From an uncultured Candidatus Saccharibacteria bacterium (GTDB lineage: Bacteria > Patescibacteriota > Doudnabacteria > UBA920), in assembly GCA_964631145.1 (NCBI GenBank), contig CAZVXT010000001.1, positions 393,237 to 457,236 on the forward strand: a stretch of 64,000 bases of DNA. The letters run 5' to 3'. The notes under the pieces were generated by a model. The model was not told the DNA's origin and made no database searches. It saw only the letters and a program-made list of their open reading frames with translations. Below, one piece after another: positions 5,298 to 18,598 of this stretch (its first letter is position 1; the number at the start of each line of letters is the position of its first letter). A program made the position numbers and the translations under genes.

Positions 5298-5927
5298 TTA
5301 TATCTCTCTACGTCCCTCTAAGGCTCTGCTTAGAGTAACATCATCAGCGTATTCTAAGTCGCTACCCATAGGAAGTCCTCTAGCTATTCTTGTAACTTTG
5401 ACAGGGCTATCTTGGAGCATTTTGACAATATGCATTGCTGTTGTTTCTCCTTCTAGTGTAGGGTTGGTGGCAATGATAATTTCTTCGGTCCCTTCTTGTT
5501 CGACTCTTGATTTAAGTGAGTCCAAATTTAACTGAGTTGGACCAATTCCTTCCATTGGGTTGAGAACTCCACCTAATACATGAAAGATACCATTAAATTG
5601 TCCAGAGCGATCTAGGGCGATTGCATCCAAGGGTTCTTCTACTACGCAAATTAGCTTTTGATTTCTTGATAAATTATGGCAAATGCTACATGGATCAGAT
5701 TCTGCCATGTTGTGGCAACGGGTACAAAAAACAATATCTTGCTTAAGATTTTTTAAGCTGTCAGAAAAATTAAGCAATTCAACATTGTCAGATTTTAATA
5801 AATAAAACCCAAGCCTTTGAGCAGACTTTTGTCCAATTCCTGGTAACTTATTAAATTCATTTATTAATCTTTGTAAAGAAGTTGGGAGTTTGAGCATTGA
5901 AATAACTAAATAGTCTTTATTAGCCAA
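5298..5927 (-). CDS. recR: recombination protein RecR
   Basis: HhH motif LPGIGQKSAQRL, a C4 zinc finger CTRCHN...CSICHN and a Toprim domain. Confidence 0.9.
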   Translation of the reverse strand: MANKDYLVISMLKLPTSLQRLINEFNKLPGIGQKSAQRLGFYLLKSDNVELLNFSDSLKNLKQDIVFCTRCHNMAESDPCSICHNLSRNQKLICVVEEPLDAIALDRSGQFNGIFHVLGGVLNPMEGIGPTQLNLDSLKSRVEQEGTEEIIIATNPTLEGETTAMHIVKMLQDSPVKVTRIARGLPMGSDLEYADDVTLSRALEGRREI

Positions 5928-7401
5928 AATTTTCGTCTTGATTTTGAGTTAGGCTTTGCATTACTTTGTCTGGGCTAGTATCGAAGGATCTGTCTAGATT
6001 GCGGAAAGAAGTTTTTTCTCCATCGAAGAATAAATCTACTTGACCTGTTGGTCCATTACGGTGTTTTTTGATGTGCAGTTCGGCAATATTTGGTCTACTA
6101 GACTCTTTGCCTTTATACATATCTTCACGATAAATAAACATTACAACATCGGCATCTTGTTCAATAGATCCAGATTCACGCAAGTCGGCTAATTGAGGTA
6201 CTTTATCTGGGCGATTTTCTACGCCACGAGAAAGCTGGGACAAAGCCAAAACTGGTACGTTAAGTTCGCGAGCTAAAATTTTGAGCGAGCGAGAGATTTC
6301 TGAAACTTCTTGAACACGGTTGTCTGTGTTGCGACCAGCCATTAACTGCAAATAATCAACTACAACCAAACCTAATTTGTGTTCAGCGGCAAGACGACGA
6401 GCTTTGGTTCTAATTTCCATAATATTTCCACCAGCGGCATCGTCAATATAGATTGGTGCTTCTGATAAAGTTCCCATAGCTTCGGACAGTGTTGCAAAGT
6501 CATCGTCGGTAAGCTGTCCAGTACGGATTTTCCAGAAGTCGACATTGCTTTCTGCGGCAAGCAAACGGTCTACAAGCTGGTCTTTACTCATTTCGAGAGA
6601 AAAGATTCCTGTTGGGGTTTTGGTGTGCACGGCTACATATCTCATAATATCTAGTGCTAAAGAAGTTTTTCCCATAGAAGGACGTGCGGCCAAAATAACA
6701 AGGTCGGATTTTTGTAGTCCACCAAGTTTTTTATCTAATTCTACAAACCCTGTTGGAACTCCGCGCAACTTTCCACGCTCACGATGTAGCTCGTCAATAC
6801 GCTCAAACGTTTCGTGTAAGACAGAACTAATTGGCACAAAGTTTTGTTGAAGATGCGATTGAGAAATATTAAAGAGTTTTTGTTCGGCTTTGTCGAGAAT
6901 GTTTTCAATTTCTCCTTCTTCCGAAAAAGCCATGTTTGTAATATCGTTTGCCGATTGTATAAGGCGGCGAAGAGTGCCTTTTTTGCGAACAATACTAGCG
7001 TAATAAGTAACATGAGCAGCACTTGGCACAGAGTTAACCAAGCTAGTTAGGTAACTGGTGCCACCAACGCGATCCATTTGCTTCTTTTCTTCAATATTAT
7101 TAGATACGGTCAATACATCGATAGAAACATTTTGTTCAAATAATTGAATTATTGCCTCATAAATTATTCTGTGTCTAAAGTCGTAAAAATCATCAGCTAC
7201 AATTTGATCACCGACTTTGACAATAGCATCCTTATCTAGCATAAGACAGCCTAGAAGAGCTGTTTCTGCTTCTAGGTTTTGTGGGGGTAGGCGGTCGATT
7301 GTATGGTTTCCTGTCATAAGATATTTACGCTTTAATTTTTGGTTAACTTCTTTGTCACATTTTCCGCTACTCGCTTCAGCGTACCAATAAGTACGCTTCA
7401 C
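5920..7401 (-). CDS. dnaB: replicative DNA helicase DnaB (GTG start at 7401; alternative ATG at about 7320)
   Basis: N-terminal PPQNLEAETALLGCLML and Walker A ARPSMGKTSLALDIM, with the RecA-like core and its H4/DnaB motifs. 8-nt overlap with recR. Confidence 0.9.
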   Translation of the reverse strand: MKRTYWYAEASSGKCDKEVNQKLKRKYLMTGNHTIDRLPPQNLEAETALLGCLMLDKDAIVKVGDQIVADDFYDFRHRIIYEAIIQLFEQNVSIDVLTVSNNIEEKKQMDRVGGTSYLTSLVNSVPSAAHVTYYASIVRKKGTLRRLIQSANDITNMAFSEEGEIENILDKAEQKLFNISQSHLQQNFVPISSVLHETFERIDELHRERGKLRGVPTGFVELDKKLGGLQKSDLVILAARPSMGKTSLALDIMRYVAVHTKTPTGIFSLEMSKDQLVDRLLAAESNVDFWKIRTGQLTDDDFATLSEAMGTLSEAPIYIDDAAGGNIMEIRTKARRLAAEHKLGLVVVDYLQLMAGRNTDNRVQEVSEISRSLKILARELNVPVLALSQLSRGVENRPDKVPQLADLRESGSIEQDADVVMFIYREDMYKGKESSRPNIAELHIKKHRNGPTGQVDLFFDGEKTSFRNLDRSFDTSPDKVMQSLTQNQDENFG

Positions 7402-7921: not shown

Positions 7922-8065
7922 ATGCCAAAAAATATTGAAGAAGATTTATTAGATACAAATATTAACAGCGAAGAAACAATTCTTAACATAGAAGAAGAAG
8001 TAAGGGAATCAAAACAATTTCGACAAGAGGAGGGTAAACTTTATGACAGCAATAACACCCGGTAA
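7922..8065 (+). CDS. hypothetical acidic micro-protein (47 aa, MPKNIEEDLLDTNINSEETILNIEEEVRESKQFRQEEGKLYDSNNTR)
   Basis: SD GGAG 7 nt upstream of the ATG. Found by hand translation; not in the ORF track because it is under 60 aa. Overlaps the next ORF. Confidence 0.35.
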   Translation: MPKNIEEDLLDTNINSEETILNIEEEVRESKQFRQEEGKLYDSNNTR

Positions 8066-8246
8066 AAGATTTGGAAAAGAAGAACATGAAATGCTTGCAG
8101 AAAAAAATATCTACAATGCACTTGGAGTGTTTATTTCTATTTTTGAAAAGAGTAACGGCGATTATAAACTTGCTAATCAGCATGCTCGTGATGCACACTT
8201 CAAATCTATAGAGAGATTTGAGAAAAGATATTCAAAAAATTATTAG
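8043..8246 (+). CDS. hypothetical small protein (67 aa)
   Basis: SD GGAGGG upstream. Charged and helical in composition. Confidence 0.45.
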   Translation: MTAITPGKRFGKEEHEMLAEKNIYNALGVFISIFEKSNGDYKLANQHARDAHFKSIERFEKRYSKNY

Positions 8247-8260
8247 ATTAGGAGGTTTAT

Positions 8261-8461
8261 ATGGCGGGTTTAACTTATAGTTCACGTGTCATAGATTTGG
8301 CTAAAGCACTACTAGATCATCCCATAAACAAAGAAACTGGTTTGGTAAAGGAAATTGATGTAAATCTTATGCCACTACTCCGGCAGATAGATGAAATAGA
8401 CATTAATTTTACATTGTTACTATTAGGAATTGCTAAAGCTAAAAATAATGATCAAAAATAA
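8261..8461 (+). CDS. hypothetical small protein (66 aa)
   Basis: SD AGGAGG at the correct spacing before the ATG. Followed directly by a terminator. Confidence 0.5.
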   Translation: MAGLTYSSRVIDLAKALLDHPINKETGLVKEIDVNLMPLLRQIDEIDINFTLLLLGIAKAKNNDQK

Positions 8462-11624: not shown

Positions 11625-11713
11625 GTAGACTTTTATGTTTGTTTCAATTTCGAAGTTTTAATTATTATAACATAATTTGCCGATTCATTAGTTTGCAGGT
11701 ACAATTATATTGT

Positions 11714-12304
11714 ATGCATTACTCTAAATACGATGCTATTTTTATGATCGGTCCTCAAGGTTCTGGAAAAGGAACTCAGGGTCGAGTTTTGGCCGAACAG
11801 ATCGGCTTTTTCTATTGGGAAATGGGCGCAATTCTTCGTGAAGAAGCAAAAAAAGATACCCCTTTTGGAAAAAAAGTTAAGAGTCTGATTGATGCTGGTC
11901 ATTTGCTTGAAGATGACGAGCTTTACCGTGTTTTAAATACAGAATTACCAGAAGTTATAAAACATAAGCGTGTGTTGTTTGATGGTGTTCCAAGACGTGT
12001 AGGACAAGGCTTGTACTTAATGCATTATTTAGAGCAAAATGGTTTTAAAGAATTTGCAACAATTTCTATAGAAGTCCCAAAGGAAGAATCTATTAAGCGC
12101 TTATTAGAACGAGCACATCATGAGTTTCGTGTTGATGATACTCCAGAAAAAATTGCTTATAGATTAGATTTATATGATAAAGAGACTGTACCGGTATTGA
12201 AATTTTTGCAAGGTATAGGAGATTTTTATGCTATTGATGGTATGGGATCTGTTGAAAATGTAAAAGTTAGAATTGATCAAGCTTTAGAAGTAAACTCTGA
12301 TTAA
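11714..12304 (+). CDS. adk: adenylate kinase (short form, no LID insertion); ATG at 11714 chosen over the track start at 11639
   Basis: P-loop IGPQGSGKGTQ, the NMP-binding motif FDGVPRR, and RVDDTPEKIAYRLDLY. Confidence 0.8.
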   Translation: MHYSKYDAIFMIGPQGSGKGTQGRVLAEQIGFFYWEMGAILREEAKKDTPFGKKVKSLIDAGHLLEDDELYRVLNTELPEVIKHKRVLFDGVPRRVGQGLYLMHYLEQNGFKEFATISIEVPKEESIKRLLERAHHEFRVDDTPEKIAYRLDLYDKETVPVLKFLQGIGDFYAIDGMGSVENVKVRIDQALEVNSD

Positions 12305-12307
12305 TAT

Positions 12308-12979
12308 ATGAAGCTTAAAGTTGGTGCTAAACCTTTCAATCTTATCTTGCTTGGCGATCCTGGTGCAGGTAAAGCTACTCAGACAGCTTATCTAGCTAAG
12401 AAGTATGGTATGTATGATTTTGACATGGGTGAAGAATTGGCAAAGATGAGGTTAATAGATTCTAAATTCGATAGTTTATGTAAAAAGACTATTGATCAAG
12501 GGAAATTAGCTCCAACATCTATAGTGACCAAGCTGTACGCAGCCATTATTCCTAAGATTCCAAAAAATCAGGGGATAGTTTTTGATGGACATCCACGCAT
12601 GGTCCCTGAAGCAAAATTTGTAATTAACTTATTAAAAAAGAGTGGACGTAGTGAGCCTCTTGTGGTATATTTACATATCAATCATAGAGAGATGTATAAG
12701 CGCCTTAAAAATCGCAAAGGCTATAGTAGTTCTAAGAATAAAAAGCGTGCAGATGATAGTCCTAAAGCTATCGTTAATAGATTGAAGTACTATAAAACTG
12801 AAGTTCAAAATACATTAGCTTATTTTGGCAAACATTATAGCACTGCAGGAGTAGATGGTTTGGGTAGTAAGGTTGATGTTAAAAAAAGATTCGAAAAAGT
12901 AATTAAACACTATTTATTTAACTATAAAGATTTTAAAAGTTGTGGGATGGTAATGCATTATAATGACAAGAGCTGTTAA
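12308..12979 (+). CDS. second, more divergent adenylate-kinase-family protein (tandem paralog)
   Basis: P-loop LLGDPGAGKATQ, FDGHPRM, and RADDSPKAIVNRLKYY. A basic C-terminal tail overlaps map by 17 nt. Confidence 0.65.
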   Translation: MKLKVGAKPFNLILLGDPGAGKATQTAYLAKKYGMYDFDMGEELAKMRLIDSKFDSLCKKTIDQGKLAPTSIVTKLYAAIIPKIPKNQGIVFDGHPRMVPEAKFVINLLKKSGRSEPLVVYLHINHREMYKRLKNRKGYSSSKNKKRADDSPKAIVNRLKYYKTEVQNTLAYFGKHYSTAGVDGLGSKVDVKKRFEKVIKHYLFNYKDFKSCGMVMHYNDKSC

Positions 12980-15532: not shown

Positions 15533-17314
15533 TTATAGAGTTTTATTTTTTATCTCATCAACTAGTTTATTTACAAACTCATGAACTTTAATTACACCTA
15601 AGTCTTGATCGCCGCGCCCTCTTACGGCTACGCTTTGAGCTTCCATTTCTTTATCCCCAACAACTAAAATATAGGGGGTTTTTTGTTTAGAAGCTTCGCG
15701 GATTCGCTTGCCCATGGATTCACTTCTACTATCTATATCTATTCTTGCTTCTGGATTTGCAGCTAGAATTTGCTCTTTAATTTGCTTGGCAAATTGTCCA
15801 TGCTTTTCGTCTGAAATTGGAACAATAACAGCTTGAACAGGGGAGAGCCATGTTGGCATATTGCCTGCAAAATGTTCGATTAAGAAGCCGATAAATCTTT
15901 CGTGCGTTCCTAAGGGTGCGCGGTGAATAATTGCTGGAGTCTTTTTTTGCCCATCTTGATCTGTGTATTCTAAACCAAAGCGTTTGCCCATATACAAGTC
16001 TAATTGATTGGTTGATGCAGTAAAAGATCGTCCAATTGATGAGTAAATTTGAAAATCCATCTTAGGTCCATAAAAAGCAGCACCTTCGTTTACAATCTTA
16101 AATTTGACACCAGATTTTTCCATAGCTTCTATGGTCATACGCTCTGCCTCTTTCCAGTCTTCTTCATCGCCATGATACTTATCCATCTTATTTGGATCGC
16201 GAAGAGCAAGCTCCATTTCATATTCATGAATACCTAATTGTTGATAATAATATTCATGAAGCTTGATTACTTTAACAAACTCTTCTACAGCATCTTCTCT
16301 TCTAACATATGTATGTGCATCATTCATTTGCATCCCTCTAACGCGCATTAATCCAAATAAACTACCACTATCTTCATAACGGTGGCACCAGCCGTATTCT
16401 GCGTATCTTACAGGTAAATCGCGGTAACTTTTTGGGCGAGCGGCAAAAGTCTTATGATGAAAAGGACAGTTCATTGGTTTGATATAGTAATTTTCATCTT
16501 CAATAACTATCGGTGCATACATACTATCTTTGTATAAAGGTAAGTGCCCAGAAGTATAAAACAAATCTTCTTTAGTAATAATTGGAGTTGTTACTCTTTG
16601 GTAGCCCCATTGGCGTTCTGTTTGCTTAGCCCAGTTTTCTAATTCTTCTTTGATAATATTTCCTTTTGGCAGCCATATTGGTAAACCTTTTCCAATAGCT
16701 TCATCAAAATGAAATAAATCTAACTCTTGTCCGATAATTCTATGGTCGCGCTTTTTTGCTTCCTCTAGCATTTCTAAGTGCGTTTGTAACTCTTCCGCAG
16801 TATCAAATGCTAACCCATAAATACGGGTAAGCATTTTGTTTTTTTCATTGCCGCGCCAGTAAGCGCCTGCAAGTTTGTGTAATTTAAAGCTTTGCGGATC
16901 GATGGTACTTAAATCTTCGCTGTGTCCGCCTTTGCAAAGATCCCAATAATCTCCGGATTTATAAAAACTGACTTTACTTCCGTCTTGTCTAAACTCTTCG
17001 ATTAATTCGTGTTTGTAGGGGTTGTTTGGATATTCTGCCTTAGCTTCTTCAGGTGTTAGTTCATGGCGTTCAAAAGTTTTCCAGGTAGGTAAGATTTTGC
17101 GCATAACCTTCTCGATTTTTGGCAAATCTTCCTCAGTTATTGGGTTTTCAAATTCGAAATCAAAATAAAATCCATCATCTATAGCAGGTCCAATTGTTCG
17201 TTTCGTGTTTGGGTATAGATTCATTACTGCGGCTGCTAAAAGGTGGGCAAGCGAGTGTCTTTTGTTTTGTAATTTTTCGTCTAGGATTGACATAAGTGTA
17301 TTTTTCGAGTACAA
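15533..17314 (-). CDS. thrS: threonyl-tRNA synthetase lacking the N-terminal TGS domain (TTG start at 17314; alternative ATG at 17293)
   Basis: Editing-domain HxxxH (RHSLAHLLAAAV), class II core, and the anticodon-binding region HRAPLGTHERFIGFLIEHFAGNMPTWLSPVQAVIVPI. Confidence 0.9.
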   Translation of the reverse strand: MYSKNTLMSILDEKLQNKRHSLAHLLAAAVMNLYPNTKRTIGPAIDDGFYFDFEFENPITEEDLPKIEKVMRKILPTWKTFERHELTPEEAKAEYPNNPYKHELIEEFRQDGSKVSFYKSGDYWDLCKGGHSEDLSTIDPQSFKLHKLAGAYWRGNEKNKMLTRIYGLAFDTAEELQTHLEMLEEAKKRDHRIIGQELDLFHFDEAIGKGLPIWLPKGNIIKEELENWAKQTERQWGYQRVTTPIITKEDLFYTSGHLPLYKDSMYAPIVIEDENYYIKPMNCPFHHKTFAARPKSYRDLPVRYAEYGWCHRYEDSGSLFGLMRVRGMQMNDAHTYVRREDAVEEFVKVIKLHEYYYQQLGIHEYEMELALRDPNKMDKYHGDEEDWKEAERMTIEAMEKSGVKFKIVNEGAAFYGPKMDFQIYSSIGRSFTASTNQLDLYMGKRFGLEYTDQDGQKKTPAIIHRAPLGTHERFIGFLIEHFAGNMPTWLSPVQAVIVPISDEKHGQFAKQIKEQILAANPEARIDIDSRSESMGKRIREASKQKTPYILVVGDKEMEAQSVAVRGRGDQDLGVIKVHEFVNKLVDEIKNKTL

Positions 17315-17353
17315 TTAATACTCGACTTAATGATAAATTTATGGAGGTAAAAT

Positions 17354-17557
17354 ATGAATTCTGCTGCTGCAGAAACTAAGAAAGAAGAATCAATTTTTGA
17401 GGAAGAATCAAATTATAAAGCTGTGACAATACCAGAAACAAAGTTTGCTCCGCCTGGAGCTGTTATGTGTAATTGGTGTTGCGGCGATGGTTGTAAGTCC
17501 TGCAATTATAAAGGGATAAAAACTTTTTCTTATTCCCGTGGATCTTCGATTTTATAA
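17354..17557 (+). CDS. small Cys-rich peptide (67 aa) with an acidic N-terminal half and a C-terminal CNWCCGDGCKSCNYKG cluster
   Basis: SD GGAGG 8 nt upstream of the ATG. Five Cys within 12 residues. Followed by a strong terminator. Confidence 0.5.
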   Translation: MNSAAAETKKEESIFEEESNYKAVTIPETKFAPPGAVMCNWCCGDGCKSCNYKGIKTFSYSRGSSIL

Positions 17558-17569
17558 ACAAAAAACCCA

Positions 17570-17627
17570 GAGATTAATGGTCTATTATTAGACTTCTAAT
17601 CTCTGGGGTCTTTTTTAAAGACGATTC
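17570..17627. terminator. bidirectional rho-independent terminator
   Basis: acaaaaaa-cccagagatta...taatctctggg-gtctttttt: an 11-bp perfect stem flanked by an A-run and a T-run. Confidence 0.7.
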
Positions 17628-18598
17628 CGTCCCAGCTTGCTTGCAACTTATTTGCAAGCCTTTTTATTTGATTGATTAAAAACTCCACGGTTGGTAGCCG
17701 GATCAATATTTTTAACAAAATTAGTATAGCAGTTAATTTTGAAAAAGAAAATAGGGAAAAGAAAAAGGACTAAACAATTGTTTAGTCCGAAAGGAGACAA
17801 GAGAGACAAAATATGGAAAAAGTGAGAACGGGCAAAAATAGAAAATAATGATAACAGATGAAAAGATCTCTCTTGTAAAGTATCCTCCTAAGGATATGAG
17901 GGGTGCGACACAGTAATATTACTAGTCGCTTGAATGTGCTAACTAAAAGTTAGCGTATGAGAATGAAGACAAATGTCTTGTATCTCAATTTCATTATACA
18001 CCTACAATAACACTTGTCAAGTCTTAGCAATTCAATTCAGAAATAAACATTTTTAATTACTTAATTAAGTAAACTTAGAACAACCTAGATGAGTGTTAAT
18101 TTATCCTGAGTTGGTTTGTGATTAAGGTTTGTTATATTATTAAATAAATCTAAATATTTTTTGCAAAATAAAAAGCGAAGCTGGATATGAATTGTATAAA
18201 TTAACATATAAATTAGCTTCGCGAAACATCTTTCCTTTGGGGGCAGATGTGCATTCTTCTCATGTTCCCAATTATGAGAAGACAGGAGGAATAAATATAA
18301 ATTGTATTGGGTGGATGCGACGTAAATTTAACGCACCCGCCATCTTAGATTGTTTTATAAATATAAAGTAACAACCTAAAATATTTCAAGCGAAACTGTT
18401 ATGCGTTGATGGTCTATTTCAAACAATTTAACAGACTGTATTGTCTATGGTTTCGCTTGTCTGCCATTGGCAGAAGCTTTATAATTGCAGCTTGCAAGTA
18501 AACCCTTCCGCTAATAATTAGCATTTACTTGCAAGGTTGGCGACTCTAAGAGTTAATTAACCAACAGGAGCTAGTTTGATTGCACTCTTAAGTTATGA
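17628..18598 (-). ncRNA. candidate large structured ncRNA (about 1 kb, unclassified), inferred from promoter and terminator placement and the absence of ORFs
   Basis: No ORF of 60 aa or more on either strand across about 1.07 kb between convergent genes. Many perfect hairpins: gctaact/agttagc, gcgaagct/agcttcgc, ttctcat/atgagaa, cttgcaagtaaa/tttacttgcaag. The minus-strand promoter sits at 18599-18626 and the bidirectional terminator at 17570-17627. Confidence 0.25.
17648..17676 (+). terminator. second tandem hairpin with a U-tract
   Basis: gcttgcaa-cttat-ttgcaagc followed by ctttttatttg. Confidence 0.4.

Follow-up and report, generated by a model that had tools for sequence, protein, structure and literature searches.

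A candidate cysteine-rich small gene antisense to a reduced T-box-type leader of thrS in a Patescibacteria genome

We describe a 67-codon open reading frame (ORF) and its surroundings in a stretch of 64,000 nucleotides (nt), hereafter called the window, of contig CAZVXT010000001.1 (positions 393,237 to 457,236, assembly GCA_964631145.1) from an uncultured Candidatus Saccharibacteria bacterium, which is placed in the Doudnabacteria of the Patescibacteriota. The ORF lies antisense inside the 5' leader of thrS, the gene of threonyl-tRNA synthetase. Judged by its sequence and predicted structure, this leader is a reduced and divergent T-box riboswitch for thrS which is missed by Rfam. We lean slightly towards regarding the 67-codon frame as a genuine but lineage-restricted small gene. 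The leader context is the more solid result of the two.

The small ORF and the thrS leader

A sequence-only reading of the window had described the ORF as a stand-alone gene with a strong Shine-Dalgarno (SD) sequence and its own terminator, encoding a peptide of 67 amino acids (aa) with an acidic N-terminal half and a C-terminal half with five cysteines in 12 residues. Position, ATG start and peptide sequence are exactly as quoted there, and the SD sequence, the two-part architecture and the cysteine count hold as well. The features of the locus are as follows.

17354-17557, plus strand: 67-aa ORF (MNSAAAETKKEESIFEEESNYKAVTIPETKFAPPGAVMCNWCCGDGCKSCNYKGIKTFSYSRGSSIL), ATG start, 67 codons, an ORFan
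17345-17349, plus strand: SD sequence GGAGG, 6 nt before the ATG of the ORF
17287-17315, plus strand: promoter-like TTGACA-17-TACAAT, 11/12 sigma-70-like matches, the -35 hexamer overlapping the first thrS codons on the opposite strand
17305-17325, either strand: perfect 7-bp inverted repeat TCGAGTA-N7-TACTCGA between the thrS ATG and the SD sequence of the small ORF
15533-17293, minus strand: thrS, true start ATG at 17293, 7 codons inside the mechanically listed ORF
17294-17555, minus strand: 262-nt spacer of the thrS 5' untranslated region (UTR), from the T-box terminator to the thrS ATG, with the small ORF antisense within
17554-17712, minus strand: T-box-type thrS leader with specifier hairpin, linker, Stem III, T-box sequence with antiterminator, and terminator
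17723-17728, minus strand: -10 box TATACT of the leader promoter (TATAAT in the related genomes L011 and L081)
17686-17702, minus strand: Stem I reduced to a short hairpin with the 7-nt apical loop CUACCAA, the Thr codon ACC at 17695-17693 being followed by A
17639-17659, minus strand: Stem III hairpin GCUUGCAA-AUAAG-UUGCAAGC, with purines on either side (AAAAG, AAG)
17603-17635, minus strand: T-box sequence and antiterminator, with helix A1 (CUGGG/CCCAG), the 8-nt bulge A-CGGA-AUC and helix A2 (GUC/GAC)
17566-17612, no strand assigned: terminator hairpin GACCCCAGAGAUUA...UAAUCUCUGGG, extending as a feature over 17556-17612 with U-tracts on both strands

The N-terminal half of the peptide contains seven Glu and three Lys, the cysteines are C39, C42, C43, C47 and C50, and 17 residues remain after this core. 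A CxxCxGxG motif can be read directly from the sequence as CNWCCGDG, followed by a CxxC motif as CKSC; the pairs C39xxC42 and C47xxC50 correspond to CNWCCGDGCKSC, which includes one CxxCxGxG knuckle. Tryptic digestion would release AVTIPETK and FAPPGAVMCNWCCGDGCK.

The terminator and the isolated position of the gene have to be seen differently. The small ORF stops 9 nt short of the hairpin at 17566-17612 with its T-run, but this hairpin belongs to the thrS leader on the opposite strand as its conserved terminator, and relatives without the Cys ORF have it too; the gene is not stand-alone, as it sits antisense inside the thrS 5' leader. The flanks had been given as thrS and a 1-kb region free of ORFs, which is right, but the start of that region is the T-box-type riboswitch for thrS. 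For annotation this means that terminators and "ORF-free" DNA beside small ORFs may belong to the opposite strand.

The inverted repeat covers nucleotides 12-32 upstream of the thrS ATG and shares part of its sequence with the -10 box of the small ORF. It is missing from the L011 clade, relative to which it lies within an insertion of about 23 nt in the alignment. A recognisable SD sequence is not present in front of thrS.

Conservation and structure of the leader

The order dnaE then thrS on one strand is conserved in the group. The gap between the two genes was aligned among the window and those nearest relatives that also have it (related genomes carry L numbers), which revealed a strongly conserved block on the thrS strand including the terminator hairpin at 17566-17612. 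Read 5' to 3' on the minus strand, the block consists of a hairpin with the loop CUACCAA(C), an A-rich linker ending in AAAAG, a genome-specific hairpin, two or three purines, the sequence CUGGG-ACGGAAUC-GUC, a loop, GAC-CCCAG, and finally a long hairpin with a U-tract. The linker between the specifier hairpin and Stem III is about 27 nt long, A-rich and single-stranded. Directly upstream of thrS such a leader is found in seven genomes (the window, L003, L004, L010, L011, L018 and L081), all of which contain an invariant ACCAAC, while the Cys ORF is present in the window only.

The pairing is well supported by alignment A3 of these seven leaders. In the P1 hairpin and the antiterminator helices A1 and A2, 94% of the cells are paired, compared to 24-54% in slid controls. 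Three of the four P1 pairs show compensatory changes on both sides, and a compensatory change from UA to CG is seen at the alignment pairs 101/144 and 114/139, that is in one A1 pair (L003) and one A2 pair (L010, L018). The terminator hairpin covaries extensively. At the position of Stem III all of the 11 leaders folded show a hairpin flanked by AAAAG and purines, each time of different sequence, and the minimum free energy (MFE) of the window leader corresponds to z = -5.9. Since the 3' strand of A1 and A2 (CCCAG/GAC) is at the same time the 5' strand of the terminator hairpin, antiterminator and terminator are mutually exclusive.

Assignment to the T-box family

ACC is a threonine codon. The assignment as a T-box is based on the ACC specifier followed by a purine, which fits tRNA-Thr(GGU) with U73, on the arrangement AAAAG-Stem III-AA, and on the antiterminator built of A1, bulge and A2. 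An arrangement of the AAAAG-Stem III-AA type together with an A1-bulge-A2 antiterminator is described as the "discriminator" core of all T-boxes (PMC7583486).

A covariance model, R1, built from the seven leaders scores the window leader with 140.7 bits and finds weaker matches directly upstream of thrS in six more distant genomes (L043, L041, L039, L035, L031 and L042). All six contain a canonical UGGAACC; at the same site these distant Paceibacteria leaders carry the canonical UGGGUGGAACCGCG (CUCGGUGGAACCGCG in L031 and L042). The ACC specifier is found in the apical loop of five of the six, and the loop of L042 ends with ACCAAA. At the orthologous site the Rfam T-box model is the best family in L042, L041, L039 and L031 with 27.5-39.8 bits (E-values 2.6e-5 to 0.04 in a 66-kb search), and reaches 22.2 bits in L043; all five scores are below the gathering score of 93 bits that is set for RF00230. 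Orthology and architecture place the window leader in the T-box lineage.

The tRNA-Thr(GGU) genes of the related Paceibacteria L019, L030 and L040 have the discriminator U73, which fits the A of the bulge tetranucleotide NGGA, as the GGU anticodon fits ACC. The tRNA-Thr of the window's own genome is encoded outside the 64 kb, and the U73 match rests on these related genomes.

Three formal characters of T-boxes are missing from the window leader, namely a long Stem I, the canonical bulge and a score above the Rfam threshold. A long Stem I with K-turn, Specifier internal loop, AG bulge and distal loop could not be found; Stem I is a hairpin of 3-5 bp, at whose base tandem G.A pairs are possible, and no C-stem for a K-turn was found. 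UGGN is invariably located at the 5' edge of the T-box bulge (PMC7583486), and the canonical bulge has 7 nt, whereas the bulge of the window (17623-17630, minus strand) has 8 nt and reads A-CGGA-AUC instead of UGGNACC; its tetranucleotide CGGA is moved one nt away from helix A1, and its first nucleotide, opposite A76 of the tRNA, is C instead of U. This form is strictly kept in six lineages, and the bulge of L010, A-UGGA-ACC, is intermediate between the window and the canonical forms. No T-box match is obtained with Rfam in the window even at E<=10, and at the gathering score as well as at E<=10 neither the leader nor the remaining ORF-free DNA is assigned to a meaningful family.

Two further searches were discarded. 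The sequence ACACCAAU, opposite the Cys codons, had hinted at a second, decayed T-box in tandem within the spacer, but model R1 finds only one leader in the window. A metagenome scan with the pattern CTGGGAYGGAAN{10,40}CCCCRG returned 120 stretches with 0 real leaders, the pattern being too unspecific.

Is the 67-codon frame a gene?

SD context and codon usage favour a real, lineage-specific gene. When the 1.3-kb intergenic region is simulated with a Markov model, 20% of the simulated regions contain an ATG ORF of at least 67 codons, and 0.3% contain one together with a correctly placed 5-mer SD sequence. GGAGG or AGGAG followed by 4-10 nt and ATG is found 24 times in the window, and the intergenic instances almost always open real-looking ORFs, while the intragenic ones yield stubs of 1-12 codons. 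The codon-usage score of 0.127 bits/codon corresponds to the 22nd percentile of windows from real genes and exceeds that of 97.5% of the spurious ORFs overlapping genes, and the GC content at third codon positions is 0.24 (0.25 for genes). On these grounds the ORF is somewhat likelier to be expressed than silent.

Several results weigh against a genuine gene with a defined product. No homologue of the peptide is found in about 15 billion proteins: a word-indexed search of 5.8 billion protein clusters returned the peptide itself only, and an exhaustive HMMER (phmmer) scan over 1.84 billion representatives gave in addition only two spurious matches, both to long repeat proteins without Cys. The peptide is an ORFan without known relative. 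L003 and L004, which are closest by thrS (78% identity), contain the leader but not the Cys ORF. No thrS in any database is closer than that 78%, and the two other assemblies with the locus are 100% identical to the window, so selection on the ORF is not measurable. The locus is also present in the sequencing runs SRR12712853 and SRR12712864. AlphaFold2, run on the single sequence, gives a mean predicted local distance difference test score (pLDDT) of 47, no secondary structure and no confident fold. The zinc-finger profiles, including PF00684, do not match, and the spacing CxxC-x4-CxxC is unusually tight for a zinc site. The frequency of 20% for frames of this length without an SD sequence points in the same direction.

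Further searches of the peptide were equally negative. Pfam and NCBIfam at E<=10 gave noise only and no SCIFF or other precursor model; PHROGs, PADLOC and the sequences of the PDB gave no match, and neither did viral contigs and phage genomes searched by tblastn. If the peptide is expressed, the chances that the pairs C39/C42 and C47/C50 bind Zn(II) or another metal are about balanced.

It is possible, though clearly the less probable view, that the ORF is a chance or decaying frame in the fast-evolving spacer of the thrS leader. In that case the Cys cluster would be a by-product of G/T-rich DNA, and SD sequence and promoter would be fortuitous or relics of an ancestral small gene of the L011 type described below. 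ORFan status, absence from L003 and L004, the missing confident fold and the simulated frequency of long frames all agree with such an origin, as does the fact that the spacer is the least conserved stretch of the locus and that the -35 hexamer is merely the reverse of the thrS codons Met-Ser-Ile. The combination of SD sequence and ORF, however, is rare by chance, the codon usage is gene-like, an SD sequence with ATG strongly predicts genes in the window, and a sister clade has retained a selected small gene in the same slot. Five cysteines in 12 residues are expected with a probability of ~1e-3 for random codons of that composition, which is a post hoc estimate.

If the frame is a gene, its peptide would at best be a young, lineage-specific micro-protein, which bears on the origin of small genes in the tiny genomes of Patescibacteria.

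The spacer as a slot for small ORFs

The spacer between T-box terminator and thrS is short, about 0-60 nt, in L039, L041 and L043, three distant relatives with the canonical T-box motif. In the sub-lineage of the window it has grown to 100-300 nt and evolves fast. The UBA926 clade (L011, L203-L207) contains at this place a divergent ORF of 71 aa preceded by AAGGAGG and ATG.

L011 5743-5958, minus strand, and L203-L207 1252-1467, minus strand: 71-aa small ORF, antisense in the spacer between T-box and thrS

Between L011 and L206 the nucleotides differ at 34%, and the 71-aa frames are of equal length without indels, their proteins being 54% identical. In frame, the proportion of synonymous differences (pS) is 0.65 and that of nonsynonymous differences (pN) 0.25, with a dN/dS of 0.20, compared to a pS of about 0.27 and a pN of about 0.35 in the two other frames. 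By this substitution pattern the 71-aa ORF is under purifying selection. As a sister clade keeps a selected ORF there, the slot can hold a real gene. The 71-aa protein itself occurs in this clade only. The T-box terminator supplies the last codons of its gene (NPRKH), and the whole arrangement is reminiscent of a type I toxin/antisense layout.

The window peptide and the L011 protein share a local similarity (IFEEESNYKAV and IFGKEFNFKAV; shuffle p = 0.005, hhalign P = 0.015), and both ORFs have the same frame relative to the terminator. These features suggest, rather than show, common descent; the similarity is marginal, with an hhalign probability of 3%. We also considered that the Cys cluster might be a frameshifted transmembrane (TM) helix of an L011-type gene. 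This found no support: tblastn in all frames supports only the IF..N.KA motif, and the frames of the ORF and of L011 agree at this motif and at the terminator anchor.

Other genomes have different proteins in such positions. In L081 a 62-aa ORF with an SD sequence is present at the same position, which is acidic and unrelated to the other two. A survey of 72 thrS loci yielded seven divergent small ORFs preceded by an SD sequence, which are mutually unrelated and none of which resembles the window peptide; one encodes ribosomal protein L32 and one a CxxC...CPxC protein (L062). The latter, a 64-aa ORF at about 1350-1545 on the minus strand with CRRC...CPRC, is zinc-ribbon-like and in sequence unrelated to the window peptide. 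The spacers of L003 (5890-5950) and L004 (about 5905-5965) share the block GCAGAAGCCUrACUAyrUAGGCUGGUUUUACCAUArGGUGAAUCAGCC, which may be a second regulatory structure.

A possible coupling of the small gene and thrS

The following scheme can be drawn from these features. The small gene would be transcribed divergently from thrS, from its own near-consensus promoter and antisense inside the thrS 5' leader. Uncharged tRNA-Thr(GGU) would pair with ACC and with the NGGA bulge and stabilise the antiterminator, and RNA polymerase would then continue across the 262-nt spacer into thrS. The converging transcript of the small gene would be stopped by the terminator hairpin as well, which has U-tracts on either side. 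The product would be a soluble micro-protein whose Cys pairs are predicted to bind one Zn(II) or other metal, and not a RiPP precursor (a precursor of a ribosomally synthesised and post-translationally modified peptide).

Expression of the small gene and read-through into thrS may interfere with each other, since the gene is antisense to the riboswitch-controlled 5' UTR over its full length. That the two form a riboswitch-coupled antisense pair, in which uncharged tRNA-Thr causes read-through and silences the mini-gene while charged tRNA-Thr permits its expression by termination at the bidirectional hairpin, is unlikely. Speculative and similarly unlikely is the idea that convergent transcription couples the small gene inversely to thrS read-through. 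If such an antisense pair existed, the slot would be a cradle of unrelated small proteins, namely Cys-rich in the window, with two TM segments in the UBA926 clade and acidic in L081.

In a related view the plus-strand transcript would act chiefly as an antisense RNA to the thrS 5' UTR, by transcriptional interference or duplex formation, with coding being secondary. The whole ORF is complementary to the 262-nt spacer and converges on the same hairpin, and an A-rich A2 loop, which is a U-tract on the opposite strand, is found in leaders that face a divergent ORF and not in others; with three genomes against three this is anecdotal. A pure antisense RNA, however, would need neither a strong SD sequence nor gene-like codons, and the ORF of the sister clade is selected at the protein level. 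We regard this function as improbable compared to that of a small protein-coding gene.

The reading of the peptide as an orphan ranthipeptide or SCIFF-type precursor, with acidic leader, Cys-rich core and a maturase encoded elsewhere, is very improbable (no family, no precursor-model match and no maturase within the 64-kb window). Its support is compositional only, namely the acidic N-terminal and the Cys-dense C-terminal half. Against it, no SCIFF or other precursor model of NCBIfam or Pfam matched at E<=10, and no homologue, hence no conserved precursor family, was found in the protein sets or in viral and phage DNA; the search for homologues, which the sequence-only reading had proposed, ended with self-matches only. 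As had been stated there, no maturase is adjacent: the radical-SAM-type motif CxxxCxxC is absent from the 49 ORFs of at least 150 aa in the 64 kb, and the ten nearest genes form a housekeeping neighbourhood (a Na/H exchanger, two adenylate kinases, a NUDIX protein, cysS, an FtsW/RodA protein, a dCMP deaminase and three unknowns). The small size of the host genome (Patescibacteria, about 0.65 Mb, with a contig of 653,896 bp) and the 17 residues that trail the Cys core also speak against a precursor.

Other features of the window

The small ORF is also flanked by methionine aminopeptidase, thrS and dnaE. Two more units with 12/12 consensus promoters and terminators are found on the thrS strand in the kilobase without ORFs.

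17762-17988, minus strand: RNA-B unit, promoter 18020-17993 (12/12, TTGACA-16-TATAAT), about 225 nt of consecutive hairpins (MFE z = -7.1), terminator 17788-17767
About 18160-18596, minus strand: RNA-A unit, promoter 18628-18601 (12/12 consensus) right after the dnaE stop, about 430 nt of structured RNA (z = -6.05)

In RNA-B a hairpin UAUCCU-UAGG-AGGAUA is found, the core CCUUAGGAGG of which is conserved in L011, L206, L208 and L081; its GGAGG is not followed by a start codon, and the unit has no Rfam match. RNA-A contains a hairpin at 18223-18175 with a U-tract, is poorly conserved in L081 and L011, and has no match to Rfam, tRNA or tmRNA.

Elsewhere in the window, three successive small ORFs (47, 67 and 66 aa) at 7922-8460 on the plus strand, each with GGAGG or AGGAG and ATG, may be further small genes. 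Two adenylate kinases are encoded in tandem as paralogues (11639-12304 and 12308-12979, plus strand; Pfam ADK, E = 1.5e-28 and 1.7e-25). For a genome of about 0.65 Mb such a pair is unusual.

Comparison with known systems

With the precursors of SCIFF and ranthipeptides (NCBIfam TIGR03973) the 67-aa peptide shares its shortness, a leader-like N-terminal part and a C-terminal Cys cluster. Unlike them it has no match to a hidden Markov model, no radical-SAM maturase nearby, no homologue family, and a long C-terminal tail past the cysteines. With the CxxCxGxG knuckle of DnaJ and with small Cys4 zinc-finger micro-proteins it has in common an exact CxxCxGxG followed by CxxC, which offers four cysteines for one metal ion. 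However, DnaJ has four full CxxCxGxG motifs and the peptide one, only four residues separate its CxxC pairs, and it comes without Pfam match, PDB relative or confident model.

The 71-aa ORF of L011 and the UBA926 clade (P0124, P0125) shares slot, orientation and frame with the window ORF, a comparably placed strong SD sequence and ATG, and the local motif IF....N[FY]KA[VA]. In contrast to the 67-aa peptide its protein is hydrophobic with two TM-like segments and one Cys, and it runs into the terminator; the overall similarity of the two is not significant.

For the leader the nearest known design is the transcriptional T-box of the glyQS type without Stem II (RF00230). Both have a cognate specifier followed by a purine (in the window directly upstream of thrS), a purine string RRRxG-Stem III-AA, an A1/A2 antiterminator with a competing intrinsic terminator, and a 5' bulge carrying NGGA complementary to the 3'-UCCA of the tRNA. 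The window differs by its Stem I of 3-5 bp with the codon in the apical loop, for which no K-turn could be shown and which lacks a distal T-loop platform, by its bulge of 8 nt with C for U and the tetranucleotide one nt off A1, and by the silence of Rfam.

Specifiers in an apical loop belong to variants with a short Stem I, most of which act on translation and rely on Stem II for support (PMC7583486). The actinobacterial ileS T-boxes with "ultrashort Stem I" (Sherwood et al. 2015, via PMC7583486) resemble the window leader in their apical-loop specifier and in the missing elbow-binding platform. They are translational and sequester the SD sequence, with a Stem II S-turn and a IIA/B pseudoknot (PMC7583486), whereas the expression platform of the window leader is an intrinsic terminator and its specifier hairpin is joined to Stem III by the A-rich linker of about 27 nt.

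Among the searchable full texts of the literature no paper was found that joins T-boxes with Patescibacteria or the candidate phyla radiation. The window leader unites features that usually occur apart, namely a terminator platform, an apical-loop specifier, the absence of both a Stem I platform and Stem II, and a displaced tetranucleotide starting with C. If functional, it would be among the smallest transcriptional T-box designs and would extend T-box regulation into the candidate phyla radiation.

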